A stretch of DNA of 64,000 nt from a virus (lineage: Duplodnaviria; Heunggongvirae; Uroviricota; Caudoviricetes), in IMG/VR virus record IMGVR_UViG_3300010049_000009, positions 1-64,000 of that record; one strand, written 5' to 3'. Numbering within the stretch: position 1 is the first letter of the stretch; the number at the start of each line of letters is the position of its first letter. A program made the position numbers and the translations under genes. The notes beneath the pieces are model-generated. The model searched no databases. It was not told the origin of the DNA and saw only the letters and a list, made by a program, of their open reading frames with translations. Positions 5,632 to 61,400 of this stretch are shown here, one piece after another.

Positions 5632-5706
5632 AGCGGTGTATTTCAATGGTTAGAATGACGGTCTCCAAAACCGTAGATGGGAGTTCGAGTCTCTCCACCG
5701 CTGCCA
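5632..5706 (+). tRNA. trnW: tRNA-Trp (anticodon CCA), with encoded 3' CCA
   Basis: acceptor stem AGCGGTG/CACCGCT, anticodon stem ACGGT/ACCGT, loop CTCCAAA, T-arm GGGAG-TTCGAGT-CTCTC, all folded by eye. Confidence 0.8.
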
Positions 5707-11907: not shown

Positions 11908-12627
11908 ATGAATAATATTCAACAACAATTACTAAAAGAGGTTAAGCGTGGTCAATCAGGTTACGGATTTCTATTTGAGAATGACGGATTTGTTGATCCT
12001 ACTAACCAAAAACATATGTTAAATGAAGACAGAGATAGAAGTGAATGGTATATACCATTTCCTTATATTATCCACGCCGTCTTTCAAAAAGCGGATACCC
12101 CAAACGCCAACGGTAGAATATACCCAAGACCAATATTAGAAAGAGAACTTATAAAATATCAACTAAAAATCAGTGAAAGAAGGGCTTATGGTGAAAGTGA
12201 CCACCCCGAATCAACCATTATATCCACAAAGGGTATTTCAATGAACATTATTAAATTATGGTGGGAAGGAAAAACTATTGTGGGTGATTTGGAAGTACCA
12301 CTATCACATGGATTTGTGAAGAATGGTATTTGTAGCACTCCGGGAGATATTATTGCGAATAATATTTATTATAATAGGTTGAAACTTGGTGTTTCTTCGA
12401 GAGGTGTGGGTTCCGTGGAAGCAGGAAAAAACAATATTAATGTTGTTGGAGACGATTTTGAACTTTTGTGTTGGGATTGGGTGACTGACCCTTCAACACC
12501 GGGTGCTTGGACAGCAAAAGATATGAGTGATTTGAAACCTTATATTGAAAACACAGAAATCAAAACTTGTGAAAAGAAAATATTCATCATTGAAAAAGTT
12601 GATAAAGTATTACAAATTATAAAATAA
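11908..12627 (+). CDS. T4 gp21-like prohead core protease
   Basis: GRIYPRPILERE, YGESDHPE, LWWEGKTIVGDLEV, LGVSSRGVGSV and AWTAKDMS align with recalled T4 gp21 segments (KRLYPKRILEKA, GELNHPP, MWWKGNDVYGRARV, GVSSRGLGSL, AWVTPKE). Confidence 0.6.
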   Translation: MNNIQQQLLKEVKRGQSGYGFLFENDGFVDPTNQKHMLNEDRDRSEWYIPFPYIIHAVFQKADTPNANGRIYPRPILERELIKYQLKISERRAYGESDHPESTIISTKGISMNIIKLWWEGKTIVGDLEVPLSHGFVKNGICSTPGDIIANNIYYNRLKLGVSSRGVGSVEAGKNNINVVGDDFELLCWDWVTDPSTPGAWTAKDMSDLKPYIENTEIKTCEKKIFIIEKVDKVLQIIK

Positions 12628-13796: not shown

Positions 13797-14630
13797 TTAC
13801 CTCCCCACTTGTGGTAAATTAATCAAAGGTACACCGGAACCACCACTATACATAGGGAGTTTTCCATCCCACTTTTCGATAGCGTATTGTTGAACGAGTA
13901 ACATATTAAGTGATGCTGCAACAACCCTGTTGTAGTATGCTTCGCCGTCACCCTTAATTTTCAAGGCTTCCGCTTCACCACGCGCTTTAGTTACTTCGAT
14001 TTCCGCTTGTGCTCTTGCACGAGCGACCTCATTTTCCGCCCTCATCGCTTCCTGTACCATTCGGTTTCTTGAATCAATCGCCTCTACCAAACTTGCCGGT
14101 GGTGCAATCGCAGCCGTAAATTCAACAACCTGAAAACCTTGACTACCTAACGATTGTTCGAGCATTTCTCGGACTTGTGCCTCAAACTCACCACGCTTCG
14201 CCATTAATTCATCGGATGTGAAGAGGTTCCCAACAGTTCGATAAGCGTCAAACACACAGGTTAGAATAAATCCTTGTTCGATTTCCTTTATGGGTCTACG
14301 ATATGTTAAAAACACATCAATCGCCTTATCGGGATTCAAACGGTACGCCAAGTTTGGTGTGATACGGAAAATTGCCGCATCCTTCGCATTAACGGTGATT
14401 TCACCATACGAAACTCGTTGTACGTACACCGGATACTGATGTACACTCTGTGTAAAGGGGTTAAACCACACAAAACCACGTACAGTTCCCATTACACCAC
14501 CTTGTTTCTCTTCCGAAACACTCCACTTGTGGAATTTAATACCAACCGAGGTCGAATCGACCGTGGTACAACTTTGGGCGAACATCATAATCGCCACTAA
14601 ACTCAAAATCCAAAAACTTCCTTTCTTCAT
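13797..14630 (-). CDS. SPFH/band-7 (stomatin/HflK/C-like) lipoprotein
   Basis: lipobox MFAQSC; SPFH core with a coiled-coil EAMRAENEVARARAQAEIEVTKARGEAEALKIKGDGEAYYNRV. Confidence 0.7.
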   Translation of the reverse strand: MKKGSFWILSLVAIMMFAQSCTTVDSTSVGIKFHKWSVSEEKQGGVMGTVRGFVWFNPFTQSVHQYPVYVQRVSYGEITVNAKDAAIFRITPNLAYRLNPDKAIDVFLTYRRPIKEIEQGFILTCVFDAYRTVGNLFTSDELMAKRGEFEAQVREMLEQSLGSQGFQVVEFTAAIAPPASLVEAIDSRNRMVQEAMRAENEVARARAQAEIEVTKARGEAEALKIKGDGEAYYNRVVAASLNMLLVQQYAIEKWDGKLPMYSGGSGVPLINLPQVGR

Positions 14631-14694
14631 CTGTTCTAAAAAAATTTAATGTTAAAAACTTATTTTACTTATCAAATATACATAATATATTTCA

Positions 14695-15693
14695 TTACTT
14701 AAAAACGTTACGATTTTCCCTAAAGAATTTCAATAACGTGGTTTCAGACCAACTAACCCTTTCGTCTGAACGAGAGGTTGGGGCAAACTTTTGTTCTATC
14801 GCGTCAATATACATTGTGTGAGAAAAATCATCACCTTGATAATTTTCTTCCCAATATTTCGGCGGAATCTTGTTTTCCATATCCAACTGCTCAATAGAGA
14901 GGTTGTCGAAACTGATAACATTGGTGTAAGATACAATTTTAATAATATTCCGATCCCATTCCACAATATTATTCTTAATATCCTCTGAATAAGATTTATA
15001 GTAATCTAATCCTCTACCAAACTCTTTATAACCAAGCAATAGAAACTTTCGTAATCCGAAGCGGTCTCTTAACTGTGTTATAATTTCCGGTGTGTGTAGA
15101 CCTATAATAAGGTGCGCAACTGTGTGTTCATACTTCAAAAAATACTCTTCGTCTGCTGAACACTTATCAATACCTTCTATTGGAATTGATACACCTAACC
15201 CATAAATCAATTTTTCTTCCATATAACGTTTCAATTCAACCGCATTACTTCCATGTAAGTGGTGAAAATTAACCGTCAAACTAGGGAATATCTTTTTTGT
15301 TTGACAGAATTGAAGAAGTAGTGGGAGGTCGGGATGTGATAATGGATTACCGCCGCCGACTGCCATTTCCTGTCCACCTGGTAACACATCCAAAACTTCT
15401 ATCAACGCATTTATATCAGCGTGTTTTCCGTGAAAATGTGATTTTTCATGACAAAAAGCACAGGGTTTAAAATCACCCATACCATATTTAGATGGTATGC
15501 CCACACATTGGTTTGTGATTTTTATATCCATACTGTTCGGATAGTCAAACACAACAGGTTTGGTTTCGTCAAACTCCATTATTCGTGTACCATCTTCAAA
15601 AAGTTGGACTTTTACATTACCGTTTTGGTAGTTTATTATTTCTTTCATTGTGTTTTTTAAATTAACAATCATTTCCGAATTTTCCAAAAGCAA
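14695..15693 (-). CDS. radical-SAM-like protein with a non-canonical CX14CX2C cluster motif
   Basis: C-VGIPSKYGMGDFKP-C-AF-C (exactly 14 and 2 spacing) followed by a GGGNPL glycine-rich motif. Confidence 0.4.
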   Translation of the reverse strand: MLLENSEMIVNLKNTMKEIINYQNGNVKVQLFEDGTRIMEFDETKPVVFDYPNSMDIKITNQCVGIPSKYGMGDFKPCAFCHEKSHFHGKHADINALIEVLDVLPGGQEMAVGGGNPLSHPDLPLLLQFCQTKKIFPSLTVNFHHLHGSNAVELKRYMEEKLIYGLGVSIPIEGIDKCSADEEYFLKYEHTVAHLIIGLHTPEIITQLRDRFGLRKFLLLGYKEFGRGLDYYKSYSEDIKNNIVEWDRNIIKIVSYTNVISFDNLSIEQLDMENKIPPKYWEENYQGDDFSHTMYIDAIEQKFAPTSRSDERVSWSETTLLKFFRENRNVFK

Positions 15694-16000
15694 CTATTTT
15701 ATCACCGCTCGGGGTGGTGTGATCCATTTCAAAACATTCTAAACACTCATCTTCCAACCACTCCTCATAGGTTTGAATGTTTTCATTTTGATATTCTTCA
15801 AAAGAATCATAATAAGTCCTTTCGTCATTATCTTCAAACTCTTTCTGAAATTGTGTTAGTGTTCCCAACGTTTCTTCATCACGATTGAAAACTAACATAC
15901 CGTCTTTCCACAAATCAAATTCTGATCTCGCCACTATCGTTAGTGTGTGGGTCGAAGAAGAATTGGTTTCAAAAACCCCTAATCTACATACCTGTTTCAT
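15662..16000 (-). CDS. hypothetical protein, paralogue A (N-terminus RLGVFETNSSSTHT)
   Basis: shares the N-terminal motif with the 16382-16933 product. Confidence 0.45.
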   Translation of the reverse strand: MKQVCRLGVFETNSSSTHTLTIVARSEFDLWKDGMLVFNRDEETLGTLTQFQKEFEDNDERTYYDSFEEYQNENIQTYEEWLEDECLECFEMDHTTPSGDKIVAFGKFGNDC

Positions 16001-16021
16001 ATTATTTACATTTAATTTATA

Positions 16022-16381
16022 TTATTTTACTAATTTATCTACCATTTCAATCACATCCCCGTGTAACAACATTTCTGCTTCCGATATTTCCTTAACCACA
16101 ACGGGTTTAGGTTTGGGTTTCTGAAACACATCAAATAGTCTTTTTATCCATCCAACCCCACTATCAACGGGGGTTGATTCAATGTTCACTTCTTGTTCAC
16201 GAATAAATATTCTGTGTCCTACCCGCGCTGCTTCTTCTTGTTGTCGTCTTTGCATTTCTTCAAGACGTTGTTGGAACTTCGACTTTCGTGGTGGTATATC
16301 TGTTACGATAAAACGACCATTACCTTCTTGTAAACGCGCTTGCATTTCTTCAAGGCGTTGTTGAAATTTTGACTTTCTCAT
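16022..16381 (-). CDS. coiled-coil protein with an internal tandem repeat (RKSKFQQRLEEMQ x2)
   Basis: DNA direct repeats at 16250-16293 and 16339-16381. Confidence 0.45.
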   Translation of the reverse strand: MRKSKFQQRLEEMQARLQEGNGRFIVTDIPPRKSKFQQRLEEMQRRQQEEAARVGHRIFIREQEVNIESTPVDSGVGWIKRLFDVFQKPKPKPVVVKEISEAEMLLHGDVIEMVDKLVK

Positions 16382-16933
16382 TTAATTTCTCCCCTGTCTT
16401 ACTAAAATATATTTAGTTTCATCTTTGATAACTTCCAAGAATGGATCAATTATCTTTTCCATAATTTCGTCAAATGAAAAATTCATTGTGTTCGTAAACT
16501 CTTCAATAAAACTAAATGTTACTTCACCCCTATCTTCGTAAATAGAAATAGAGGTATCTTCGAGTACAACGTCATTATATGGTAAGTTCATTTTAATATA
16601 ATGTATTGCTTTATAAACAATATCTTTGTCAAGACACAAATATCTTTGAACTGTACCATCACAATCACGTTTCATTTCATTCATATACAACATTAATAAT
16701 GCCGCCTTTTCGTCAAATGTGTAAGCCACCCATTGTTTTCCATTATAAAGGTCCCCACCACATTGGGTTTCGGTTGGTTCAGTGTATGTGTGATAGAAAA
16801 CACTTGGGTATAAAATGTTTTTCTCAACCAAACCCATTTTCTTCAAAGGAATTTTGGATTTCAGTTGAACTACCATTGTGTGAACTGAACTAGAATTTGT
16901 TTCAAATACACCTCTTCTAATAACTTTCTTCAT
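16382..16933 (-). CDS. hypothetical protein, paralogue B (N-terminus RRGVFETNSSSVHT)
   Basis: paralogue of the 15662-16000 product. Confidence 0.5.
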   Translation of the reverse strand: MKKVIRRGVFETNSSSVHTMVVQLKSKIPLKKMGLVEKNILYPSVFYHTYTEPTETQCGGDLYNGKQWVAYTFDEKAALLMLYMNEMKRDCDGTVQRYLCLDKDIVYKAIHYIKMNLPYNDVVLEDTSISIYEDRGEVTFSFIEEFTNTMNFSFDEIMEKIIDPFLEVIKDETKYILVRQGRN

Positions 16934-17023
16934 TTCAATTATTTTTTACGTTAAAAACTAATTCAAAAATACAATTAGAAATCATAGAAAACAAATGTAT
17001 ATTTGGGGTAACAAAAATTTAAT

Positions 17024-17710
17024 ATGATGGTAAACATAAAAAAATTGTACAAGTATGGTTACTTGGAAATAGAAGGTGATAGTGAAAATATATGGTTCAC
17101 ATCGGACTTACACTTATATCACAAAAACATTATCAAACTTTGTAATAGACCATTTGCTGACGTTGAGGAAATGTCAAATACATTGGTCGAAAATTGGAAT
17201 AGTGTGGTTAAAGAAGATGATTTGGTATTCAATCTTGGGGATTTCTGTTGGTCAGAATGTTCTATCGTTTGGTCAAAACTCATAGATAAACTTAATGGTC
17301 GTCAAATTTTGATAAAAGGAAACCACGATCACCCCAAAACATTACAAAAATTATCCGATAAATATTCTCTTATTGAAGTTTGGAAACCAGGGTCTAATTT
17401 CCCAATTAAGAATTTGAATAAGTTATTTATGATAAGAGAAAGTTTAGAGGTGCGCCACAACGGGGAACGCTTTCTACTTAATCATTACCCACAAGCACAT
17501 TATGTTGGACAATATCATTCCGTTAGACAAATATTTGGGCACACCCATGAAAAATCATGTGCATATTCACCCAATCATTACAACGTTTGTGTTGAGCGAA
17601 ACCTGTATCGCCCTGTATCATTGGAAGAGGTGGGAATGTTGCTGACAATGCAGTGTCGGGATAACGAAACAAATTATTTTTTAGAAGACCTACTATATAA
17701 AGAAACATAA
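17024..17710 (+). CDS. calcineurin-like metallophosphoesterase
   Basis: FTSDLHLYH ... LGDFCW ... KGNHDHP (DxH/GD/GNHD motifs). Confidence 0.6.
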   Translation: MMVNIKKLYKYGYLEIEGDSENIWFTSDLHLYHKNIIKLCNRPFADVEEMSNTLVENWNSVVKEDDLVFNLGDFCWSECSIVWSKLIDKLNGRQILIKGNHDHPKTLQKLSDKYSLIEVWKPGSNFPIKNLNKLFMIRESLEVRHNGERFLLNHYPQAHYVGQYHSVRQIFGHTHEKSCAYSPNHYNVCVERNLYRPVSLEEVGMLLTMQCRDNETNYFLEDLLYKET

Positions 17711-17750
17711 AAACATTTATCTCCTATTTATTTATAAAAAAGGAGATATA

Positions 17751-18239
17751 ATGGAAGCGTTAGATTTTAGATTGACCGATATATTTGCCATTTTATCATC
17801 ATTGGTTGTGGTGGTAACGGCATTAGCAGCACTGTTCAAAAAACTACGAACCAATCTTGTGACCAATATGGCTTCACTGATTGATGTGGATAGTTTGAAT
17901 AGAAATTCTTCTTTGTATAAAACATTGGAGATTAACAACCAAATATTGGATCAAGTGAACAATATTAATATGAAAAACATTGATGCGTTTGATAAAATAA
18001 ACGACCAATTTTCCAATATTAATAAATCGCTGCTGCGGTTGGAAATTTTATCACTTATGGATCACAGGTCGAATGACATGGCAACTATCTATAAGATATA
18101 TGAAGATTACAAAGAAAATGGTGGAAATTCATATATAGATAAGTTGATAAAAGATTGGGAGAAGGGTAACTATCCTTCTGTTGATAAAATAGTCGAAAAA
18201 ATACTCGAAGAAAAAGAGAGAGAAAAGAATATTAAATAA
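17751..18239 (+). CDS. membrane-anchored coiled-coil protein
   Basis: N-terminal TM; preceded by AGGAGAT (a rare SD here) and a hairpin at 17719-17747. Confidence 0.45.
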   Translation: MEALDFRLTDIFAILSSLVVVVTALAALFKKLRTNLVTNMASLIDVDSLNRNSSLYKTLEINNQILDQVNNINMKNIDAFDKINDQFSNINKSLLRLEILSLMDHRSNDMATIYKIYEDYKENGGNSYIDKLIKDWEKGNYPSVDKIVEKILEEKEREKNIK

Positions 18240-18240
18240 T

Positions 18241-18621
18241 ATGGTACATACAATTATAATCGGTGTTTGGATGACATTGTTATTTATAACATTGTCTGTT
18301 GTTTTCGTATATATGTTTAAGAAACCAAAACATAATATAAACGAGGTTTTTGAACAAATATTTAAGAAACAAGTTGATTTGTTAAAAAAAATTGACGAAG
18401 AAAACACAATGCAAGTAGAGGTGTTTGATAAACTTAACCATAATATTGTAGAGAATTATCGCATACTATTGCAAATACAAATAAAAGAATCTATTAAACA
18501 CAACCCCTTTGAAACAGAACATATTCTAAAATTATATAACGATTACATTGGTATTGCCAAATATCCGAACACAGTTTTAGATGATGCGGTTAATGAGTGG
18601 AGAAACCTATACGGTTATTAA
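18241..18621 (+). CDS. small membrane protein
   Basis: N-terminal TM. Confidence 0.45.
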   Translation: MVHTIIIGVWMTLLFITLSVVFVYMFKKPKHNINEVFEQIFKKQVDLLKKIDEENTMQVEVFDKLNHNIVENYRILLQIQIKESIKHNPFETEHILKLYNDYIGIAKYPNTVLDDAVNEWRNLYGY

Positions 18622-19217
18622 CAAATAAATTCCACCATACCACTATCCAAATAGAGATATGCGCCAACAATTTTTATATCACCATTTTTTTCCTTTTCAC
18701 GTAAAAAACGATATTCCCGAATTGTATTTACAGATTGTTGAACATTTGTTCGACACACCAAATCAAAGAAACCAGGATTAGACGATACGGTTTCACCACC
18801 ATAAATAATATCCGCACTTGCTCGTACCGCCGGTAGTATTGGGCGAAGTTTTCCTAACAAACCCCAATCCTTTTCCTCTGTATCAATAACACGTTTGACA
18901 GCAGCACAATTATCATGTCCCAAAACCATTACCAAATTCACGGAAGGAAAACTACAAGCAAATACCAAATCAAATAAAATTTCATTGGTAATAACATTCC
19001 CCGATGTGCGAATTGTAATAACATCACCCGCACCCAATTTAAAAATATCTTCAACCACAATACGAGAATCTATACAAGTTACTATCACCGCTTTCGGTGT
19101 TTGTTCCTTAATACTATGGGGTTTGTCGTTAACATATTCTTTGTTACGACATTTTAAAACTTCAAGTGTCGGGTGAGGCACTTCTTCTTTCTTTTTGAAT
19201 TTAAAAAAATCTTCCAT
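18618..19217 (-). CDS. beta-class carbonic anhydrase
   Basis: CIDSRIV...GDVITIRTSGNVI...VLGHDNCAAV matches the beta-CA CxDSR / HxxC zinc-ligand signatures. Confidence 0.7.
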   Translation of the reverse strand: MEDFFKFKKKEEVPHPTLEVLKCRNKEYVNDKPHSIKEQTPKAVIVTCIDSRIVVEDIFKLGAGDVITIRTSGNVITNEILFDLVFACSFPSVNLVMVLGHDNCAAVKRVIDTEEKDWGLLGKLRPILPAVRASADIIYGGETVSSNPGFFDLVCRTNVQQSVNTIREYRFLREKEKNGDIKIVGAYLYLDSGMVEFIC

Positions 19218-21034: not shown

Positions 21035-21526
21035 ATGAGCGATTTATTGATTAAAATGCCGTTGGTTTACGAACCATTAAGACAAAATAGGTTTCTGTTG
21101 AGGTTTCCTTCTGATCTTGGAATACAAGAATGGTGGGTAAAAGACACTGTTAGACCAACTTTGGAACTACCGTCAAAAGAAATTGAATTTATGAATACCT
21201 CAACTTGGATTACAGGAAGATACAAGTGGAAGGCAATGACTGTTAAGTTAAGAGATACTATTGGTCCTTCTACAAGTCAAGCTGTGATGGAGTGGGTACG
21301 TTTACATGCGGAATCTGTGACCGGCCGTATGGGTTACGCCGCTGGTTACAAACGTAATTGTGAATTGGAAATGTTAGACCCAACCGGTGTTGTTGTTCAA
21401 AAATGGATATTGGTGAATTGTATGTTATCAGGTGATATTAATTTCGGAAGTTTAAGTTATACATCGGAAGAAATTGCTGAAATAGATTTTTCTATACAAC
21501 CCGACTATTGTGTATTAGCATACTAA
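21035..21526 (+). CDS. T4 gp19-like tail tube protein (163 aa)
   Basis: same length as T4 gp19; collinear similarity to recalled gp19 segments (RQNRFLLRFPSDLG / RPNLFQVEISYLG; AVMEWVRLH / QKFVDWQ; IQPDYCVLAY / VTLALDYWE). Confidence 0.5.
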   Translation: MSDLLIKMPLVYEPLRQNRFLLRFPSDLGIQEWWVKDTVRPTLELPSKEIEFMNTSTWITGRYKWKAMTVKLRDTIGPSTSQAVMEWVRLHAESVTGRMGYAAGYKRNCELEMLDPTGVVVQKWILVNCMLSGDINFGSLSYTSEEIAEIDFSIQPDYCVLAY

Positions 21527-22262: not shown

Positions 22263-22952
22263 TTAAACACAACTTATAACACGTAAGGTGTGTGTTGAAC
22301 TATTTAACAAAGTACCTTGTGCTGTGTTCATTTCCGTAACGGTTATTCTAAACTGATAAATTTCGCCAACTTGTGCGGTTGCGGGAATAGTAACAGAAAT
22401 AACACTATTATTATTACCATTCAGATTGTAATACGGACCCGCACTTCCGGTTAACCCCCTATCCCAAATTGTTAATAGACTTGGATTATTATAGATTGTT
22501 CCACTCGGATAACTTTCTTGTGCAAATGTTGTAACATTTCCTGTTATATTTGTGTCTTTTATTCCAAAAGCAATTGTTACCACATGTCGTGTACCATTAC
22601 TTCTTCCTCTCCAACTACCACCTAAATAAACTGTGGTTTGTTGTCCAGCACAAACACCTGTGATTTGTGGTGGGTTGGGGTTGTTTGTTCTTGGTGCTGT
22701 CAAATGGTAATTTATATTAGTACCGTTACTTATATCCGGCGTATCCGGTGGTTTTAAGGTAATGATATTAATATCTTTTATTGCTTCGCCGCAGCGATTA
22801 GAAAACTTTATTGTAACGGGAAATACAGCATCTTGTTCGGGAGTGCAGGATATTTCCCCTGTTCGCTCATTTAATTGTGAACCTGGGGGTAACACACCTT
22901 CTGTGATTTCCCAAAATCCTGGTATCCCTTTATGTAAAATTTGTCGTATCAC
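22263..22952 (-). CDS. Ig-like (He_PIG-type) domain protein, 229 aa, possible capsid or tail decoration
   Basis: GFWEITEGVLPPGSQLNERTGEISCTPEQDAVFPVTI; paralogue of the 7097-7384 product. Confidence 0.55.
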   Translation of the reverse strand: MIRQILHKGIPGFWEITEGVLPPGSQLNERTGEISCTPEQDAVFPVTIKFSNRCGEAIKDINIITLKPPDTPDISNGTNINYHLTAPRTNNPNPPQITGVCAGQQTTVYLGGSWRGRSNGTRHVVTIAFGIKDTNITGNVTTFAQESYPSGTIYNNPSLLTIWDRGLTGSAGPYYNLNGNNNSVISVTIPATAQVGEIYQFRITVTEMNTAQGTLLNSSTHTLRVISCV

Positions 22953-23029: not shown

Positions 23030-23374
23030 TTAGGATTTTTCTAACATTTCGATTGCAGCACCGATATTGGGTGTGATATTTAATATAGTATCAAGTTGTG
23101 ATATAAAAATCAGGCGTTCCACCGCTTCGTTCAATCCACTGAGGATAAATTTACCACCGGCGTTTTTACACAACCTGTGGGCAACAAGAATTGCACCTAA
23201 GCCGGAAGAGTCACAGTATTTGCACATTTCCAAGTTCAAAATAATGTTCTTCTCACCATTCCCTGATATTAAGACTAATTCGGATTTGAGTGTTGGTGCA
23301 ATATGTGTGTCTAATTTTTGTTGTTGTACACTGATAACGGTGTGTGTAACGTTTTGGTCAATTTTTAAGTTCAT
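23030..23374 (-). CDS. STAS-domain anti-sigma-factor antagonist (SpoIIAA/RsbV-like)
   Basis: DSSGLG phospho-serine motif and overall STAS pattern. Confidence 0.7.
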   Translation of the reverse strand: MNLKIDQNVTHTVISVQQQKLDTHIAPTLKSELVLISGNGEKNIILNLEMCKYCDSSGLGAILVAHRLCKNAGGKFILSGLNEAVERLIFISQLDTILNITPNIGAAIEMLEKS

Positions 23375-23546
23375 TGCAATAAAATTTTTATAATAAATAC
23401 TTATTTCTTTCTATAAATATACATGTTTTTCAAAAATAAACCCCTACAAATTTTATATGTAAGGGTTTAATGGAAAAATATAATGAACTACATTAGGACA
23501 AGAATGTAGGTAAGTCAAATATACTATTTTCGTTTTACATATTAAC

Positions 23547-23565
23547 TCTATTTATATTAAAAATC
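23547..23565 (+). promoter_or_regulatory. conserved upstream motif CTCTATTTATATTAAAAAT
   Basis: recurring motif family. Confidence 0.4.
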
Positions 23566-23574
23566 GTATTTATC

Positions 23575-23982
23575 ATGAAAAAAATTAAAGTTGGAAGCGT
23601 ATTGGTTGAAACAAAACGCAACTTACAATTAACGTATGTTGGTTTGAATGAGGATAAGACACGAGCAAAGTTTGTGGGTGGAAATAATCAACAGTATTCA
23701 ATGTCTAAACAAAATTTATTAAATGGTTTGAAGGAAGGAAGAATAATGGAAACAACTGAACCGATAGAAGAAGATGGTAGTGCAGCGGGTGGTGGGGCCA
23801 TTTCGGGTGCTGGTGGTGGTGCGGGAGCAGGTGCTGCTTTTGGTGGAACGTATGACGCACCCGCTTTTGGTAAAGCACCCAAAAGTGTTATAAAGAAAAA
23901 ACCATATACTATATGCGCCGAAGAAATTAAGAAAAACGTCATTCGCCCTATAGTAGAACAACACCTTAAAAAGTATTTTTAA
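23575..23982 (+). CDS. small protein with an N-terminal GLNEDKTR domain and a Gly/Ala-rich tail
   Basis: VGLNEDKTRAKF...YSMS paralogous to the C-terminal domain of the 5837-6976 product. Confidence 0.5.
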   Translation: MKKIKVGSVLVETKRNLQLTYVGLNEDKTRAKFVGGNNQQYSMSKQNLLNGLKEGRIMETTEPIEEDGSAAGGGAISGAGGGAGAGAAFGGTYDAPAFGKAPKSVIKKKPYTICAEEIKKNVIRPIVEQHLKKYF

Positions 23983-26525: not shown

Positions 26526-28442
26526 TTAATTAACTTCTTCCGCTTCCTGTGGTCCACCGGCGGTTGCTTTACTGAAATCAAAATCACCAAATGGGTTGTC
26601 CGCACCCATATTAGCAAACGGATTGCTTGGGTTTCCACCACCAGGGTTATTTGCCGCATACAATCTTGTTGAAATCGGTATCCACACCTCATCCATTTTC
26701 TTTGCTAACTCATCCACCTTTTCGTGGTTTTCGGTTTTAATAACTTCCTTCAATTCGTCAATCACCGTTTGGATTTTTATTTTTTCCTCATCGGTAATTT
26801 TATCACCCATTTCGTCAATTTGTTTTTCGGTTGAGAAAATTATGGAGTCCGCCTTATTCATAGCTAAAACCTTTTCCATTTTTTTCTTATCCGCTTCGGC
26901 GTTATCTTCTGCTTCACGTTTCATTCTTTCAACCTCTTCTGACGATAATCCTGATGAAGATTGAATGGTGATATGTTGTTCTTTGTTTGTCCCTTTATCA
27001 GTTGCTTTAACAGACATAATACCGTTGGCATCAATACTAAATGTTACCTCTATTTGTGGTGTACCGCGCCTTGCCGGTGGAATACCATCTAAATCAAATT
27101 GACCTAATAGTTTATTATCATTGAAAGAGGGGCGTTCACCTTGGGCTACGCGAATGGTTACTGCCGGTTGGTTATCAACTGCTGTGCTGAAAATTTGTGA
27201 TTTTGAAACAGGGATTGTTGTGTTCGCATCAATAAGTTTTGTGAACACACTACCCATAGTTTCGATACCTAATGAAAGTGGTGTGACATCTAAAAGTAGA
27301 ACGTCTTGTGTTTCACCACTTAACACAGACCCTTGAACTGCTGCTCCAAGGGCAACAACTTGGTCGGGATGTACACTTTTGTTTGGTTTTCTCCCAAAAA
27401 ACTTCTCAACAGCCTCTTGTACAGCGGGAATACGAGTACTACCACCAACAAGAATTACTTCGTCAATATCACTTGTGGTTATACCTGCGCTTTTCAATGC
27501 TGATTTACAAGGTTCGATTGTGCGTTTAACGATAGTTTCTATCATTTGTTCAAATTTCGCACGTGTAATCGTTTGCACGAGGTGTTTTGGTACACCGTCA
27601 ACCGGCATAATGTATGGAAGATTTATTTCTGTTTGAACTGAACTTGACAACTCAATTTTCGCCTTCTCAGCGGCTTCTTTCAGGCGTTGTAATGCCATTG
27701 GGTCTTTTTTCAAATCAATGGCGTATTCCTTATTAAATTCGTCAGCAAGATAATTTATAATGACATGGTCAATATCATCACCCCCCAACCTTGTATCGCC
27801 GTCAGTGGATTTGACTTCAAACACACCACCACCGAGTTCAAGTATTGATATATCGAATGTACCCCCACCGAAGTCAAATACAGCAATTTTCATATCGTCT
27901 TTCTTATCTAAACCAAAAGCCAATGCTGCTGCCGTAGGTTCATTAATTATACGAGCGACTTCTAATCCGGCTATTTCACCCGCTTCTTTGGTTGCTTGAC
28001 GCTGTGAATCGGAAAAATAAGCCGGTACAGTGATAACTGCTTTAACCACCTCTGTTCCAAGAAAATCTTCCGCTGTTTTCCGCATTTTTTGCAGGATTAT
28101 TGCTGAAATTTCTTGTGGGGAATATTCTTTATTTTCAATTTTAACACGAATAGTGTCATTAGTACCACTTACAAGTTCGTATGCAACTTTATCCTTTTCG
28201 TTGTTGATTGAACTATATTTTTCACCCATAAAACGCTTTATGGAATAAACCGTTTTTGTTGGATTAGTTACCGATTGGCGTTTCGCGGAATCTCCCACAA
28301 CACGCTCACCGTCTTTTATAAAACCAACAATTGAGGGGGTGGTGTCCTTCCCCTCACCGTTTGGAATAACCATTGGCTTACCACCTTCTACTACTGAAAC
28401 ACAAGAGTTACTTGTGCCTAAATCTATACCTATTATTTTCAT
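26526..28442 (-). CDS. dnaK: Hsp70 chaperone DnaK
   Basis: [19 protein letters not shown]..., DLGGGTFD, full-length 638 aa with an acidic C-terminus. Confidence 0.9.
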
Positions 28443-28459
28443 ATTAAATATTTATTTTT

Positions 28460-28927
28460 TCAATTTATATCAATTTTTCTAATTGTGGGTTGTTCGGTAG
28501 AACTCCACATTTTATCTATAACAATCTCCAAAATACCATCCACAATATGTGAAGTAGTAGTATCTAAATCACAATCTTTTGGAATGGTAAATGTTTCTTT
28601 ACCGGGTTTTGTGTTGAAATGAAAACCATTATCACGTGGTTTATACTCCACAGTTAGAGTATAATCTTGTAATGTGATTTCAATATCATTTTTTGATAAT
28701 CCTGGAACCAACAATTCAATCGAATGAGTGTGTGCATCACTCTCGATATGACAGTTTGATCTACCTATACCGTATGATACAGTATAACTTGGTGGCGCAA
28801 TTATGTCTTGCGCACGTGGGAGAATACCCCACCATGGGCTTGTATCCTCACTTGGTAAAAAATCACCCACATGAAATCTATATGGATAATTACCTGTACC
28901 TGTTCTTATGTTACAACAACTTTTCAT
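28460..28927 (-). CDS. small heat-shock protein (Hsp20/alpha-crystallin-like)
   Basis: alpha-crystallin-like core IELLVPGLSKNDIEITLQDYTLTVEYKPRD...FTIPKDCDLD...DGILEIVIDK. Confidence 0.5.
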   Translation of the reverse strand: MKSCCNIRTGTGNYPYRFHVGDFLPSEDTSPWWGILPRAQDIIAPPSYTVSYGIGRSNCHIESDAHTHSIELLVPGLSKNDIEITLQDYTLTVEYKPRDNGFHFNTKPGKETFTIPKDCDLDTTTSHIVDGILEIVIDKMWSSTEQPTIRKIDIN

Positions 28928-28993
28928 ATTATATAATTATTATTATTATTTATTTTTACATTTACCACTATTCAAAGAGTGTGCCAAAGGATT

Positions 28994-29044
28994 TTTGTCA
29001 CAAAAAAAGATGTTTTTTGTGACAAAATATGACAGATTGTCATA
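28994..29044. promoter_or_regulatory. two adjacent palindromes, TTTGTCACAAAAAA-N5-TTTTTTGTGACAAA (14-bp arms) and TATGACA-GAT-TGTCATA, upstream of the sHsp-DnaK operon and overlapping the infA stop
   Basis: perfect inverted repeats sharing a TGTCA half-site. Confidence 0.45.
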
Positions 29045-29291
29045 CTTGTCCTTCATCTACTGACACCTTTGCAGTATTGAACCGGCGTGAAATACGACCT
29101 CTTGTCAGATCGTATGGCGACATTTCTATTTCGACTTTATCACCAACTAAAATTTTAACGTAGTTTTTGCGTATTTTACCTGATATTACACACAGCACCA
29201 TGTGTTCGTTTTCCAACTCAACGCGAAAGGTGGCGTTACCCAACGCTTCTGTAACTATACCTGTTTGGATTATAAGATTCTTTTTACCCAT
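29040..29291 (-). CDS. infA: translation initiation factor IF-1 homologue
   Basis: [57 protein letters not shown] is roughly 60% identical to the recalled E. coli IF-1 ([57 protein letters not shown]). Confidence 0.85.
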
Positions 29292-29652
29292 TTTCTTTTT
29301 TTATAAATTGTTTTAAATATTTCATTTCGATATGTTTCTTAATAATATCCCCATGACATGACTTCGGCGCACAAAAACAACCAAGACATATGTTTTCACC
29401 ACGTATATACATATCATATATTTCGTCTATTTTCTCTCTAAATGTGGGGTTATTTTCATAGTTTTCAAGAAAATATTCTTGGTATTTTGCAATTGCGGTT
29501 TCTCTATCTGATACCGTGTATTGCGCTAACGTTCCTGTTTTGGTACTATATGGATTACCCAATATGTTATTTTCTCTGTTTCTACCTATGTAGAAATACA
29601 CACCATCGTTTGGGGTGTGTTTATTAATGTTTATTACTTCTATACTTCCCAC
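29284..29652 (-). CDS. hypothetical protein ([14 protein letters not shown] motif)
   Basis: ORF. Confidence 0.45.
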
Positions 29653-34933: not shown

Positions 34934-34986
34934 ATCATTTTTTCTATAAATATACAGTATTTTAAAATAACATTGAATTATATGTG

Positions 34987-35067
34987 AGCGGATAGTGGGA
35001 CTCGAACCCACACGCCTTTCGGCACTAGTTCCTAAGACTAGCGCGTATACCATTCCGCCATATCCGC
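34987..35067 (-). tRNA. tRNA-Leu (anticodon TAG), type II with long variable arm
   Basis: acceptor GCGGATA/TATCCGC; anticodon stem CTAGT/ACTAG, loop CTTAGGA; folded by eye. Confidence 0.7.
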
Positions 35068-35133
35068 ATATTATCACAAATATTTGCACTGTTATCATAG
35101 GTATTGATAATAGTGCAATTTTATTTGATAATG

Positions 35134-35206
35134 TATGAGTGGAGGGATTCGAACCCCCGATTTCGTGGTCCCAAACCACGCGCCATACCAACTTGACCAC
35201 ACCCAT
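35134..35206 (-). tRNA. tRNA-Pro (anticodon TGG), with an A1-U72 pair
   Basis: anticodon stem CGTGG/CCACG, loop TTTGGGA; T-arm GGGGG-TTCGAAT-CCCTC. Confidence 0.65.
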
Positions 35207-35213
35207 GTTGTTG

Positions 35214-35285
35214 ATGTTCCACCAGGACTTGAACCTGGACAAACAGATTCAAAATCTGTTGTGCTAACCATTACACAATGGAACA
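35214..35285 (-). tRNA. tRNA-Gln (anticodon TTG)
   Basis: acceptor TGTTCCA/TGGAACA (U1-A72 typical of Gln); anticodon stem ACAGA/TCTGT, loop TTTTGAA. Confidence 0.7.
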
Positions 35286-35291
35286 ATGTAG

Positions 35292-35364
35292 CTGGGATAG
35301 TAGGTCACGATCCTACGACCTGCGGATTAACAGTCCGATGCTCTACCAACTGAGCTATATCCCA
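35292..35364 (-). tRNA. tRNA-Asn (anticodon GTT)
   Basis: acceptor TGGGATA/TATCCCA; D-arm GCTC-AGTTGGTA-GAGC; anticodon loop CTGTTAA. Confidence 0.7.
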
Positions 35365-35370
35365 ATTTTG

Positions 35371-35443
35371 CGGTCGATGTGGGATTCGAACCCCTCCTCT
35401 ACCGTGACAGGGTAACGTGCTAACCATTACACTACACCGACCA
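35371..35443 (-). tRNA. tRNA-Asp (anticodon GTC); the T-stem pairs poorly
   Basis: anticodon stem TTACC/GGTAG, loop CTGTCAC (classic Asp loop); acceptor GGTCGGT/ATCGACC; only a 3-bp T-stem found by eye. Confidence 0.55.
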
Positions 35444-35448
35444 TTTTG

Positions 35449-35524
35449 GGTGAGAGAGGAGAATCGAACCCCCGACCTTCTGATCCACAATCAGACGCTC
35501 TAACCTACCTGAGCTACCCTCACC
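35449..35524 (-). tRNA. tRNA-His (anticodon GTG) with encoded G-1 opposite C73 (bacterial type)
   Basis: 5' G-GTGAGGG; anticodon stem TCTGA/TCAGA, loop TTGTGGA. Confidence 0.7.
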
Positions 35525-35532
35525 ATATATTG

Positions 35533-35605
35533 TAGTCGGTACGGGACTCGAACCCGTTTCTCCACCTTGAAAGGGTGGTGTCCTGACCAATTAGACGAAC
35601 CGACC
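35533..35605 (-). tRNA. tRNA-Glu (anticodon TTC)
   Basis: near-identical to the recalled E. coli tRNA-Glu core (TTCGTCTA..GGACACCACCCTTTCAAGGTGG); T-arm ACGGG-TTCGAGT-CCCGT. Confidence 0.7.
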
Positions 35606-35614
35606 ATATTTTTG

Positions 35615-35699
35615 TGGAAAGGGTAGGATTCGAACCTACGAAAGTCCGAAGACAGCGGAGTTACAGTCCGCCCCAATTGACCAACTATGGGACCTTTCC
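35615..35699 (-). tRNA. tRNA-Tyr (anticodon GTA), type II (bacterial style)
   Basis: acceptor GGAAAGG/CCTTTCC; anticodon stem GCGGA/TCCGC, loop CTGTAAC; long variable arm. Confidence 0.7.
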
Positions 35700-35745
35700 A
35701 AACATTTTATCCAAAATAATATTCACATATTATTCCGATCTTATG

Positions 35746-35818
<73 letters not shown>

Positions 35819-36101: not shown

Positions 36102-38081
36102 TTAATTAACCAAAATTTTTTCACTATTTTCTAAATATTCATCAATTCGTACTATTAAACGTTCAAATTCTTCATTTATTACAGGAGAACCTGTTAAAGT
36201 TGGTTTATTTTGTACTACAATATTTTCTGTGATAATTTTTTCTTTGTTATGTTTTTTATTTTCCATTGGTGCTGCTTCTGCTGCCCCAGCCTCTGCGCCA
36301 CCCACATCGGGTGCACCACCTTCGGCAGGTGCTTCGCCACCACCTTCTTCTGCGCCGCCGCCCATATCATCCATACCCATATCGCCACCTGGTGCACCTC
36401 CACCGCCGCCACCGGCAGCCGCTTCTGCTTGTCCTATTTCAGTAGCACCATAATTATATTCTGCATTTGCTTCACCATATAATGTATCAACTCTATCAAA
36501 AAGACCTGTTTTCTTAATAATTTGTTGTGTTAATACTAATTCGGTTGCCAATGCTTTTTCAAGTCGAAGGTCTTCCAATATCTGATTAATTTCGCTTTCA
36601 GGGAATTTCATAATTTCCCTTAACGCTTTTCTCCACGAATATACTGCTAATCCACCACCCGGATCTGAAAGAGCATCTTTACAAACAAGAATCTTCTTCT
36701 GCATTTCTTCAATACGTTGAATTTCTGCTTGTGTTGAAGGATTGTTCATTGTTATTGTAAAGTTATTCAGTTCGTCTGTAAAACCTAACAAATAAAGATG
36801 TATGATAGCAATTTTATTTAGTTCAAGAATAACACATTGTTGAATACGTGTAATTATTTTGGCAAATCTTACGTCAGTCATTGATAGTGTTCTACCTTCG
36901 GCTGGTGATGCTTCAAAATTTAAAAATACCTTTGGAATACCCAAGGCGGTGAGCATTTGCAAATGAAGATATTCTAAAATATCTTTAAATTTTTCAAATG
37001 CTGAACTACCACTTAACGCCTCGATTTTACTTGCGTCATTGTTACCTCTAACCGGGATAAAATAATCGTCTAAGGGTGACATTACGTTTTTAGATAAGTC
37101 AATATGACCTGTTTGTGGGTCAATTCGGGAAGTTCTTTTAAATCTGTTTGCTATTTCTTGTACGTATGGTTCAATGTCAGCATCGTCAATTAATCCAACG
37201 TCTATTTTGTATATTAATCTATCGTATGCTCTCTCCATCATATGTATTAACATATGATCTTCCGCCATCATTAATCTTCGCCATTGTTGTCTTGCACCAT
37301 TAATATATGAACAACCATAGGGGGCGGCAATCATATCATTCATTAGTCTGAAATGTCCCACTTGCCAACTATGAAATGTTTGTGGTGCACCTGCGCCAAT
37401 ATATTGAAAATGTGGTTGAAGTTGTGATACGTCATTGTTGGATACACTACCAGCGTTTTGTGGCATAACACCGTAGGGGTGTAAACTTTGAAATCTTCTC
37501 ATTTCGACCACAGGTACGGAGTGCCACGCCAATATACCGTTTTTAGATTGAATGTTTAACAGTTTATATTCGTTACCATATTTTACCATAGTACGGACTA
37601 GGGGTAATAGTTCCAAATGTATTTGAAGTCTATTAACGAAAAGGTCTTCTAAAATAAACTTAATTCTATCTGATTTTGAGGTGATATTAATTAGTGAACC
37701 GTCAGGTCCTAAAGTACATGTTTCTGATGCTACCAAATTTAAAGCCTGATATATTTCAGGTCTTTGGCACATATTTTCAATATCACGATACATTAAGTCA
37801 ACATAACCCATTGACTGTAAATCACGCATATTAGTACGTGCTTGGGTATGTATCCACGTTGAACTTAACCATTTGTCTTGTTTACCTTGAAGTAGTGCCG
37901 CATCATATTCCGCTTTATTCTTTGTTTTAAGAATAATATCGTTATTGTAATCATAGGTGCTCGGGTGAGATGACTGAACAGTGGTGTTGTACTGCCCTTT
38001 ATCCCACCCTGTTAAAGTTTTTATCAGTGCGCTATATATACTTATAGGTTTTTCTTGTTTCTTATCCATTATCGAATACAT
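36102..38081 (-). CDS. candidate portal (T4 gp20-like) or other large head protein, with a Gly/acidic C-terminal tail
   Basis: 659 aa, no NTP-binding motif, located beside putative head/scaffold genes; the family could not be verified by eye. Confidence 0.3.
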   Translation of the reverse strand: MYSIMDKKQEKPISIYSALIKTLTGWDKGQYNTTVQSSHPSTYDYNNDIILKTKNKAEYDAALLQGKQDKWLSSTWIHTQARTNMRDLQSMGYVDLMYRDIENMCQRPEIYQALNLVASETCTLGPDGSLINITSKSDRIKFILEDLFVNRLQIHLELLPLVRTMVKYGNEYKLLNIQSKNGILAWHSVPVVEMRRFQSLHPYGVMPQNAGSVSNNDVSQLQPHFQYIGAGAPQTFHSWQVGHFRLMNDMIAAPYGCSYINGARQQWRRLMMAEDHMLIHMMERAYDRLIYKIDVGLIDDADIEPYVQEIANRFKRTSRIDPQTGHIDLSKNVMSPLDDYFIPVRGNNDASKIEALSGSSAFEKFKDILEYLHLQMLTALGIPKVFLNFEASPAEGRTLSMTDVRFAKIITRIQQCVILELNKIAIIHLYLLGFTDELNNFTITMNNPSTQAEIQRIEEMQKKILVCKDALSDPGGGLAVYSWRKALREIMKFPESEINQILEDLRLEKALATELVLTQQIIKKTGLFDRVDTLYGEANAEYNYGATEIGQAEAAAGGGGGGAPGGDMGMDDMGGGAEEGGGEAPAEGGAPDVGGAEAGAAEAAPMENKKHNKEKIITENIVVQNKPTLTGSPVINEEFERLIVRIDEYLENSEKILVN

Positions 38082-58498: not shown

Positions 58499-61400
58499 AT
58501 GATAGATTTTGATTGGAATAAAGATTTCACTAATATTATAGAAACCACCGTAAAAGACCTTCTTAAAAAAGCGGAAAAAGAAACCAATGCCGACCCAACA
58601 CCGGAACAAGCAAAGGCGGGTAATTACAAGAAGGGAAGGGTAACTATTCAAGGGTTGGAAATTGCAATAGAAAATCCGAAGGGTAGTTATCGTAAGGGTG
58701 TAGACGCAAATGGTAAGGAATGGAAAAACAAAATGAATAACACATACGGTTATTTTGTTCAAACCAAAGCAATAGACGGTGACGCTGTTGATGTTTTTAT
58801 TGGTAGTTCCATAATGTCGGATAAAGTTTTTTGTATTGACCAATATAATGGAAATGAATTTGACGAAACCAAAGTAATGTTGGGATTCACAACAGCAGAA
58901 TACGCAAAAAAAGCATATCTATCAAATTACGAACCCGGTTGGAAAGGTTGTAAATATATAACGGAATTGGATATTGATACATTCAAAATGTGGTTAAATA
59001 ACCGCAAAGAAAAAAAACAAAGAAAACCTGTTCATTTTTATAAATCACTGATAAAAGAAGAAAACTTACTCAAAGAAAGTCTTGGTGTACGTGATGGGTT
59101 AACACCCATTGCGAAGGAAATTACTAACCGAATATTGGAAAATTGGAAAATGGGTATAACTGTTATATCAGGTATGAAAATTGAAGATGTTATGAGGACT
59201 CCCTATGAAGAACTTGAAATATTTTTACCTTATAAGGGTGAAATAGAAATAAGGGATGTTGGATTTATTGGAAAAATGTCTGTTGGTTTTAAACTTGTGG
59301 GTAAGGGTGATCGTTTAACTAATTCGTTTGTGGATGATGACCCCGATTTGGGTATTATAAAATCAACGATTGAAAATAATAAAATGATTATGCCACCCAC
59401 TAGAACTAAACCAAGTACTAAACCAAAAGCACCCCCTAAAATCACACGAAATATGTTTATATCTTCGTTTCAAGATAAAAATGAATTAATGACATTGGTT
59501 CTACATGAATTAAAACATGTGTGGGATTATTATATTTACATTAAAAAGAACACCAATTTTAATTTAGAAAAAACCAAAGTTTATCAAGTACAAGATAAAA
59601 TTGCAACATATATAATAGATAAGGTTAGGCAAATTGAAAAAGAATATCCCCATAAAAAAATATCCGATGAAGAATTAATTGAATGGTATGAGGATGAAGA
59701 AAACGTCTTTACCATACCTATTGATAAAGAAGAAGAAGATATTTTGGATAATAAAATAAGAAACGATTTGTTTGTTGTGGGTTCTAAACCACTAAAATTT
59801 GTTCCAAAAGATGATACTGTTCAAAAACTATTTTATTACACAGGAGAAACAAAAGAACTTGAAGCATTTACACAAGAGTCGTGGGAACAAATGTTATCCA
59901 ATGGAGGAAAATATAGAGAAACAAGTCTATGGGAAAAATATATGTGGTTGGTTGAAAAGGATAAAGAATTAAACCCTCTAAAAGGAGAAGAGTATATAAA
60001 CAAAATAAATTTTTATCATAGGTTTTACCCATCAAGTTGGTCAAGAGATAAAGTAGAAAAGGATATCAGGTGGCGTTTAAAAAAAGGTATCCGGGATTAT
60101 GTTTATAATATCGGTAGATTACGTGCAAGGTATGATAACCCCCCCGAAACACCGGAGACACCGGAACCCCCTATTACCGAAAATAAACAAATTATTAGTT
60201 CGGTAATAAGTCCGTATCACGGTGTAATAGGTAGTGCCGCACCCGGTAGCGAAGAATATGAAATAGGAGTGGAAATATCAGAGGGATTGAATATTAATAA
60301 CATTGTTAAGGATATTCTGTTTGAAGGTAAAGAGAGTAAAAATTTATCCAAAGCTCGAAACTATTTAAAAAACATACATAGTTTAACACAAGAAAAAGCA
60401 CAACTTGTTTTAGATAACATAAGACACCTCATTCACAATTCACGAATTGAGAATTGTAAATATATGACAGGTCTTGCAAGAATGGCAATTACTAATCAAT
60501 TGAGTGATCAAATTACACAAAGTAATATGAACAAAACATTGAAACTTTTAGAGGGTCACACTGATTACAATGAAGATTTGAATGGTTTGTCGGCAACAGA
60601 ATTAATTAATCGTTTTCAAACCGCCGTTCAAGAAGATTTGGAAAAAGATAAAGAAACCCAAAAACAATATAGTAACACTAACACCGATGGTAATTACAAT
60701 GGATATAAAATAGTTCCCATAAACGATTTTGATGACGCAAAACAATATAGTTTTGGCGTTAATTGGTGTATAACAGAAAGTGAAAGTTCTTTTGAAACAT
60801 ATACTAAAAATGGGTTAGCACGTTTTTATTTTCTTTTGAAAAATAGATATGAATTTATGAGTTATGAACTTCATGATAAAGAAGGAAGTGACCCATTAGA
60901 CGAATACGGATTAAGTAAGATTGCTATTAGTGTTAATGAAGATGGTTCATTAAATAGTTCCACATTAAGACGAAATCACAATTTTGGTGCTAATGATAAT
61001 ATGTTAACTACCGGACAGATAAGTAAACTAATCAACGCAAACTTCTACGAAGTGTTCAAACCCTATTCAAAAGAAGAATTAATTGAAAGAAAAGAAAAAT
61101 TGAAATTTTTTAGACCCGATAATCTGAATGAGTTAATTAGAAGGGATAAAATGGAGTTGGATGATTTGGAACAAGTAGGGGAAAGAATAGTTAGTAGAAT
61201 TATTTACAAAAATCGTTGTAATTATATAACACCTGACGAAGCGGGAGAAATTGTTGATAATAACGGAAAACGTTATTCTGTTGTATTTTCTAAATATGAA
61301 AGTGGTTTTACAGGATGGATGCCCTTTAACAAAGTAAATAAATGTTTAATATTGGTGATTGATAAAACCTACAACATAGGTAGGGTAGATGGTACAATGA

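Follow-up and report, generated by a model that had tools for sequence, protein, structure and literature searches.

A jumbo phage of a Bacteroidales-type host encodes a SpoIIAA/RsbV-type STAS protein without an adjoining kinase

Results

A phage-borne single-domain STAS protein with a conserved phospho-acceptor site

The 64,000-nucleotide stretch of viral DNA analysed here (positions 1 to 64,000 of IMG/VR record IMGVR_UViG_3300010049_000009, referred to as the window) derives from a T4-like jumbo phage of ~368 kb with a Bacteroidales-type host. A first-pass annotation, made from the sequence without database searches, had assigned to it a 114-aa STAS-like protein carrying the phospho-site motif DSSGLG. 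The gene lies on the minus strand (Table 1), and its product proved to be a true SpoIIAA/RsbV-type STAS protein with a single domain, in which residues 55-60 read D-S-S-G-L-G. Profile searches recovered the predicted STAS fold: the Pfam STAS family PF01740 was matched end to end (56.5 bits, E 2.6e-15, gathering cut-off 22.6 bits), with residues 6-107 aligning to positions 5-106 of the 106-position profile. The phage protein also passed the NCBIfam superfamily model TIGR00377, 'anti-sigma factor antagonist', with 63 bits (cut-off 53.45), and failed the SpoIIAA equivalog model TIGR02886, for which 47 bits were obtained at a cut-off of 114.75.

The best relatives of solved structure were SpoIIAA (1auz, E 1.2e-12; 1th8, E 4.5e-12), Thermotoga TM1442 and RsbV (6m36, E 3.6e-8). 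In the alignment with SpoIIAA the two DSSGLG motifs coincided residue for residue, with phage Ser56 occupying the column of SpoIIAA Ser58. The first serine of the SpoIIAA motif, labelled Ser58, is the site phosphorylated by SpoIIAB (PMC13373217). Of 77 distant representatives of the STAS family, 64 have S or T in this acceptor column, and the serine is kept in the phage copy. An AlphaFold2 model, calculated from an 89-sequence alignment, reached a mean pLDDT (predicted local distance difference test score) of 94.1 and a pTM (predicted template modelling score) of 0.87, with the order of elements b-b-a-b-a-b-a-b-a and helix 2 beginning at residue 56. When compared by Foldseek, the model superimposed on the SpoIIAA chains of SpoIIAA-SpoIIAB complexes (1tid, 1thn, 1th8) with template modelling (TM) scores of 0.88-0.91 and a root-mean-square deviation of 1.2-2.2 A, and a probability of 1.00 with TM scores of 0.76-0.91 was obtained for SpoIIAA, RsbV, TM1442, RsbS and SLC26 STAS domains. 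Altogether, PF01740, TIGR00377, the SpoIIAA alignment and the AlphaFold2/Foldseek comparison agree with the annotated protein and its motif, at a level well above what chance would give.

Other identities considered for this open reading frame (ORF) were ruled out. The MlaB model NF033618 scored 14.9 bits against a cut-off of 90, and no MlaF-like ABC gene occurs in the window. An SLC26/SulP transporter STAS domain was discarded as the 114-aa ORF stands alone, bounded by its own start and stop codons and without a transporter fusion. Likewise, a CapS-type repressor was rejected: the protein is a bare STAS domain (residues 6-107 of 114 aa), and no kinase adjoins the gene.

The closest relatives are proteins of uncultured Bacteroidales or Bacteroidota

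A homolog search of 5.8 billion proteins returned 2,973 relatives of the phage STAS protein, the best non-self ones being 114-118-aa proteins from metagenome-assembled genomes of Bacteroidales or Bacteroidota that were 67-74% identical. Species-representative genomes contributed at least 569 matches, the best 80 of which were all from uncultured Bacteroidales or Bacteroidota. Over the full length, the phage protein was 66.7-72.8% identical to the host sequences (119 members), compared to a median host-host identity of 81.9% and a mean column identity of 84% in a 20-sequence alignment of the host family.

At the level of single positions, 79 columns reach a conservation of at least 90% in the hosts, and the phage copy retains 68 of them. 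The changes in the other 11 (F3L, L13V, E19Q, D47N, R52K, S60G, N66H, V77I, T79S, T90F and V97I) are mostly conservative, and the family-invariant residues K30, D55, G58, L59, R67 and G74 are all kept. Despite a divergence of ~30% at the protein level the ORF is intact, with neither a frameshift nor a premature stop nor loss of the start codon. A neighbor-joining tree placed the phage protein at the base of the Bacteroidales clade, on a terminal branch of 0.19 compared to a host median of 0.012; this basal position may be a long-branch effect. The G+C content of the gene is 37%, that of the phage background 34%, and the median of the host genes 41%. We read the sequence comparisons as capture of the gene from a Bacteroidales-type host, after which the phage copy evolved faster while its fold and key residues were conserved.

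The host genes are flanked by rpsA and an RNase Z-like gene, without an adjoining kinase

In the hosts the STAS gene directly follows rpsA, encoding ribosomal protein S1 with its six S1 domains, and precedes a gene for an RNase Z-like metallo-beta-lactamase (rnz), all on one strand. Among 80 Bacteroidales loci, rpsA was upstream of the STAS gene in 76 and the RNase Z-like gene downstream in 79. The gap between the rpsA stop codon and the STAS ATG had a median of 29 nt and ranged from 11 to 109 nt (79 loci), from which the host STAS gene appears to be co-transcribed with rpsA. The same trio was present in a distant clade named, according to its sources, Prolixibacteraceae/Mariniphaga, a representative of which is 45% identical to the phage STAS protein. 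No rpsA or rnz homolog was detected in the phage window.

In the Bacteroidales and Prolixibacteraceae-like loci examined, no gene for a GHKL serine kinase, a PP2C phosphatase or a sigma factor was found beside the host STAS gene, and an RsbW/SpoIIAB-type kinase, a PP2C gene and a sigma gene were absent within +-8 kb of it. Since the host orthologs have no adjoining kinase either, the orphan state is ancestral and not an invention of the phage, and a distant partner is normal for the rpsA-linked STAS family. The kinase-less state, to which the first-pass annotation had drawn attention, is not peculiar to the phage, as host proteins 67-73% identical to the phage copy, encoded between rpsA and the RNase Z-like gene, are orphans too. 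The annotation had furthermore attributed to Bacteroidota partner-switching networks the control of sigma factors, gliding and the type IX secretion system, for which we found no evidence: literature searches for the rpsA-linked STAS family or for STAS partner-switching in Bacteroidota returned nothing relevant.

A SiaC-family companion gene also lacks its kinase

The annotated DUF1987/SiaC-like protein of the window was confirmed as a member of PF09345 with the acceptor threonine kept. It matched Pseudomonas aeruginosa SiaC (6kko_C) with an E value of 1.5e-14, the acceptor threonine lying in the context FNT as compared to LNT68 in SiaC. In Pseudomonas, SiaC has an anti-sigma-antagonist-like fold; SiaB phosphorylates its T68, and the PP2C phosphatase SiaA removes the phosphate (PMC7647112).

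In ~45 of the 80 Bacteroidales loci, a DUF6272-SiaC gene pair was located 5.5-7.7 kb downstream of the host STAS gene. Because the host DUF6272 protein matches SiaB (PDB 6kko_A) with an E value of 1e-8, it is probably a SiaB-type serine/threonine kinase. The phage SiaC-like protein is 57-64% identical to the host SiaC proteins near the host STAS genes. No ORF resembling DUF6272/SiaB was found in the phage window. A hidden kinase beside the phage SiaC gene was considered and rejected: the 151-aa and 71-aa ORFs upstream of it are unlike SiaB/DUF6272 (hhalign probability <1%) and have no Pfam family.

Search for a kinase, phosphatase or sigma factor encoded by the phage

The search for switch partners covered ~78 kb of the ~368 kb of phage DNA, comprising the window, 10 kb to its left and its right edge. 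In a Pfam scan of the 82 called window proteins down to E 0.002, the families HATPase_c_2, SpoIIE/PP2C and Sigma70 were absent, and the sole HATPase_c protein was a HisKA-type histidine kinase. A hidden Markov model (HMM) built from 43 host SiaB-like kinases matched none of the window ORFs in any of the six frames (best E 0.12). The 10 kb to the left contained no kinase and no HATPase_c_2, SpoIIE/PP2C or Sigma70 domain. The annotation was thus right that no RsbW/SpoIIAB-type kinase adjoins the STAS gene.

The annotation had also drawn the histidine kinase and the two phosphoesterases of the window into the switch, a link for which we found no support. The histidine kinase has a canonical HisKA/HATPase_c transmitter without a sensor, transmembrane or receiver domain and matches several PHROG families. 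With its intact HisKA domain and its likeness to the transmitter cores of TorS, BarA and ArcB, it is not an RsbW-type serine kinase. No response regulator was found in the window. The phosphoesterases were rejected as STAS phosphatases: they match only YfcE/PdeM, weakly, or aq_1665, a protein of unassigned function, and bear no likeness to known protein Ser/Thr phosphatases.

In the DNA examined, two host partner-switch-type pairs are thus represented by their phospho-acceptor subunits, with the kinase missing from both. These two kinase-less acceptor subunits constitute the strongest backing, though an indirect one, for the idea that host switches are hijacked.

Occurrence of STAS genes in other phages

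A tblastn search of INPHARED (50,697 phage records) yielded nothing at E 1e-3; at E 10, marginal matches of 22-35% appeared, nearly all in unannotated records and none of them an annotated STAS gene. Scans of IMG/VR with the single protein and with the alignment, which rely on exact peptide words, recovered no STAS relative. PHROGs v4 contains neither a STAS nor a SiaC family, BFVD returned proteins of giant eukaryotic viruses only and no phage STAS protein, and a STAS HMM had no match in 961 kb of related jumbo-phage loci (+-10 kb each). Surveys of jumbo and huge phages report AsiA-type anti-sigma factors (PMC7824862; PMC7162821) and also sigma genes (PMC7162821); STAS proteins are not mentioned in either of them. 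Our literature searches found no report of a phage-borne STAS protein, the antagonist layer of partner-switching. The gene is therefore likely to be rare among phages, a statement that the limited sensitivity of these searches keeps short of proof.

Flanking DNA and genomic context

The AT-rich region upstream of the STAS gene, presumed to hold its promoter, contains no Shine-Dalgarno sequence before the STAS ATG. Two minus-strand matches to TAnnTTTG, the Bacteroidota -7 motif, are located upstream of the gene at 23431-23438 and 23516-23523. The window as a whole holds no excess of this motif (91 occurrences, with 105 expected), so the two matches are only suggestive of a promoter. Matches to sigma70-type promoters were at chance level. 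Between the STAS gene and the 229-aa gene directly downstream, no terminator-like site was found on the minus strand, so that co-transcription of both genes is possible. The 229-aa protein has zero relatives in IMG/VR; by eye its N-terminus resembles a putative immunoglobulin-like (He_PIG) motif, which was not backed by any scan.

The phage assignment of the surroundings is carried by the T4-type portal, the prohead protease, the tail-tube protein and one further virion structural protein. Most other window genes are ORFans, and the STAS gene sits among such phage ORFans beside structural genes. Identical DNA is present on a 367,985-bp contig (k141_2927976, ENA ERZ27264051) that ends at approximately window position 32,469. 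A 57.8-kb contig from another sample (k141_2971414) runs across this position and bridges the ends of the larger contig, which suggests that the genome of ~368 kb is circular or terminally redundant. More than 600 relatives of the tail-tube gene were found in IMG/VR, including contigs of 230-380 kb, the nearest being 55-68% identical. When 32 neighbouring window genes were tested within +-10 kb of these relatives, a single match was obtained, to the prohead protease, indicating that gene order around the tail-tube gene is not conserved.

The window additionally carries host-like genes. A proteostasis and translation cluster at 26526-29652 on the minus strand encodes Hsp70/DnaK (638 aa, E 3e-245), Hsp20 (155 aa), an IF-1/eIF-1a-like protein (83 aa, E 3e-23) and a DUF4326 protein. 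Further cargo of this kind extends over 13797-19217 and includes the Metallophos_2-like gene (Table 1). None of the window tRNAs is a suppressor tRNA. The giant ORF at the right edge, possibly a phage 'polyvalent' protein, runs off the window end and is for that reason not listed among the ORFs, so that the region looks gene-poor.

Table 1. Features of the window discussed in the text, in order of position.
Feature	Position	Strand	Evidence and remarks
tRNA-Trp	5632-5706	plus	separate from the tRNA array
SiaC-family (DUF1987) phospho-acceptor gene, 126 aa	8738..9118	minus	PF09345 E 4.5e-40
Prohead protease S77	11908..12627		
Band 7/SPFH protein	13797..14630		
Radical-SAM/Fe-S oxidoreductase-like protein	14695..15693		PHROG 16999, E 2e-43
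Metallophos_2-like protein, 228 aa	17024..17710		24.3 bits, below the 27-bit cut-off; PDB 1xm7 E 9e-13; match to aq_1665
beta-carbonic anhydrase	18618..19217		E 5e-28
Histidine kinase, 254 aa	20194..20958	plus	coiled-coil, HisKA (69.7 bits), HATPase_c; best PHROG E 7e-55
Tail-tube protein	21035..21526	plus	PHROG E 8e-21
229-aa gene directly downstream of the STAS gene	22263-22952	minus	no significant Pfam family
STAS-domain gene, 114 aa	23030..23374	minus	ATG start; Pfam, TIGR00377, SpoIIAA/RsbV alignment, AlphaFold2/Foldseek, Bacteroidales identity
AT-rich intergenic region, 200 bp	23375..23574		between the STAS gene and a divergent 135-aa gene (23575..23982); presumed promoter region
Metallophos phosphoesterase, 276 aa	31948..32778		weak YfcE/PdeM matches; no solved relative
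Nine-tRNA array	34986-35818	minus	Leu-TAG, Pro, Gln, Asn, Asp, His, Glu, Tyr, Thr
T4-type portal	36102..38081		Pfam E 1.8e-55; PHROG portal E 4e-42
Giant ORF, 1,991 aa on a JGI contig	58499-64000, past the window end	plus	inorganic-pyrophosphatase-like (InPase) N-terminus, C-terminal WG_beta_rep

Discussion

A possible extra copy of a host switch subunit

The suggestion of the first-pass annotation that the phage carries decoy or hijacking components of host partner-switching networks is reasonable in the form that switch subunits are all the phage contributes, the enzymes being those of the host, since this fits the pattern observed and gains from the SiaC parallel. We tentatively favour a model in which the phage STAS protein acts in trans as a competing extra copy of the host STAS protein, with the SiaC-like protein acting likewise on a SiaB-like system. 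In such a model, the infected cell would make the phage STAS protein, which would compete with or supplement the host rpsA-linked protein and, when unphosphorylated, would bind whatever the host protein binds. By analogy to SpoIIAA/RsbV, the partner could be a host GHKL serine kinase or anti-sigma-type protein whose gene lies elsewhere in the genome. Competition would extend to the kinase and phosphatase of the host, and the switch would then answer to phage gene expression and not to host signals; with the kinase coming from the host, the phage would need none of its own. A second host switch, the SiaB-like/SiaC pair, would be affected in the same way by the SiaC-like protein. The comparisons above establish what the protein is, its fold, the acceptor residues, the host origin, the phage setting and the lack of a kinase in ~78 kb. 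The binding partner of the phage STAS protein, its phosphorylation, the direction of its effect and its benefit to the phage are what we infer in this scheme. A bolder extension, to which we give rather little credence, is that the kinase-less STAS and SiaC copies serve as trans sponges or surrogate subunits by which the phage seizes a conserved Bacteroidia circuit tied to the S1 operon.

Several observations weigh against the extra-copy model. Anti-sigma antagonist activity of the phage protein is a prediction from homology. The 11 changes at near-invariant positions, including S60G, N66H and T90F, could reflect altered specificity or relaxed constraint and not faithful mimicry. The gene was found in one phage lineage only, as judged from IMG/VR, PHROGs, BFVD and INPHARED, and the recovered copies of the phage DNA are all at least 99.9% identical, which leaves too little variation to gauge selection within phages. 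Finally, a kinase or a phosphatase could be hidden in the other ~290 kb of phage DNA.

Alternative explanations

The host locus itself points to an alternative that we consider unlikely, namely that the phage STAS protein redirects not a sigma factor but a process of its host neighbours, such as translation or a ribosome-associated or RNA-processing function, for instance by nucleotide or protein binding. It draws on the rpsA-STAS-rnz order on one strand (76-79 of the 80 Bacteroidales loci, and the Prolixibacteraceae-like clade), on the extreme conservation of the host STAS protein, on the lack of GHKL serine kinase, PP2C or sigma genes adjoining the host copies, and on the IF-1-like, HSP70 and HSP20 genes that the phage carries 3-6 kb from its STAS gene. 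Gene order, however, speaks for co-expression and not for function, rpsA and rnz were not taken along by the phage, and the conserved phospho-serine together with the close SpoIIAA/RsbV match points to a kinase-controlled switch. This explanation partly overlaps with the extra-copy model, as a mimic could act in that very pathway. Less probable still is a self-contained phage partner-switch, with a kinase/anti-sigma protein, a PP2C phosphatase or a sigma factor elsewhere in the 368 kb and the STAS protein regulating phage transcription. Our search covered ~78 kb of the ~368 kb, jumbo phages often scatter functionally linked genes, and sigma and anti-sigma (AsiA) genes are reported in huge phages (PMC7162821). 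Against this stand the absence of HATPase_c_2, SpoIIE/PP2C and Sigma70 domains from the window proteins and the 10 kb to the left, the fact that the phage SiaC gene is without its kinase too, and the host family, which works with non-adjacent partners, so that a phage partner is not required.

We regard as improbable that the gene is a mere passenger, captured from a host without a role in infection and kept by chance; it would then be routine host-derived cargo, which is common in jumbo phages. The confinement to a single lineage, the neighbourhood of lineage-specific ORFans that is not conserved in related jumbo phages, and the 11 altered near-invariant positions would all suit such a passenger. 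Yet ~30% divergence has accumulated without frameshift, stop or start loss, 68 of the 79 conserved positions, the acceptor serine and the invariant residues are kept, the model folds with a pLDDT of 94, and SiaC, which belongs to the same functional class, has likewise been retained intact. Very little, in our estimation, can be staked on a novel kinase-STAS pair in which the phage histidine kinase would act on, or together with, the STAS protein. Although the two genes are ~2 kb apart and the kinase, the only HATPase_c protein of the window, has neither a sensor nor a transmembrane domain, they are on opposite strands with the tail-tube gene and others between them, and the HisKA domain with its likeness to TorS, BarA and ArcB indicates His-to-Asp chemistry, unlike that of the HisKA-less GHKL serine kinases which phosphorylate STAS proteins.

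Phages are known to take over host transcription by means of sigma factors of their own or of anti-sigma proteins, AsiA being an example. If the phage STAS protein is a mimic of the host protein, it would offer a simple and testable example of how a virus can override a host switch controlled by phosphorylation, namely by providing the substrate alone. The sponge reading, if true, would represent viral takeover at the antagonist level of partner-switching and would show what the host rpsA-linked STAS protein does. Bacteroidia include major gut bacteria, and the phage gene draws attention to an extremely conserved STAS gene located between rpsA and an RNase Z-like gene across this class.

Comparison with known systems

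The phage STAS protein is a virus-borne new member of a known family and not a new kind of system. With SpoIIAA and RsbV of Bacillus (1auz, 1th8, 1tid, 6m36) it shares a single STAS domain of ~115 aa, the beta-alpha topology (TM 0.79-0.91) and, in the case of SpoIIAA, an identical DSSGLG loop at the N-terminus of helix 2, including the serine that SpoIIAB phosphorylates. It differs from them in being virus-encoded, in its identity of only 26-33%, and in that its gene, unlike those of SpoIIAA/RsbV, is not part of an operon with a GHKL kinase/anti-sigma gene and a sigma factor gene. The rpsA-linked STAS proteins of Bacteroidia are closer: the phage copy has the same size, nearly all of their invariant motifs (KLDTHIAP, SGNGEKN, YCDSSGL, RLCKNA and ISQLD) and, like them, no adjoining kinase, but it is the most divergent member, on a long branch and without rpsA or rnz neighbours.

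In the SiaABCD system of P. aeruginosa (6kko, 6k4f), SiaC is a small phospho-acceptor switched by the GHKL kinase SiaB and the PP2C phosphatase SiaA (PMC7647112). The phage holds a member of this family as well; however, it belongs to PF09345, in contrast to PF01740 of the STAS ORF, so that SiaC describes the companion gene and not the identity of the ORF itself, and the known output of SiaC is a diguanylate cyclase, not a sigma factor. T4 AsiA is likewise a small phage protein, and like it the phage STAS protein would reprogramme host transcription by protein-protein interaction. AsiA, however, is a helical protein specific to phages and binds to sigma70 itself, whereas the phage STAS protein would act, as a host-derived antagonist, one or two steps upstream. 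Finally, CapS, a STAS-winged-helix-turn-helix repressor that is phosphorylated on a serine by its GHKL kinase partner CapK and controls anti-phage operons, illustrates that STAS switches can govern phage defence (PMC13373217). CapS carries a C-terminal winged-helix DNA-binding domain and has its kinase adjoining (PMC13373217), while the phage STAS protein is a bare domain and an ortholog of the rpsA-linked proteins.

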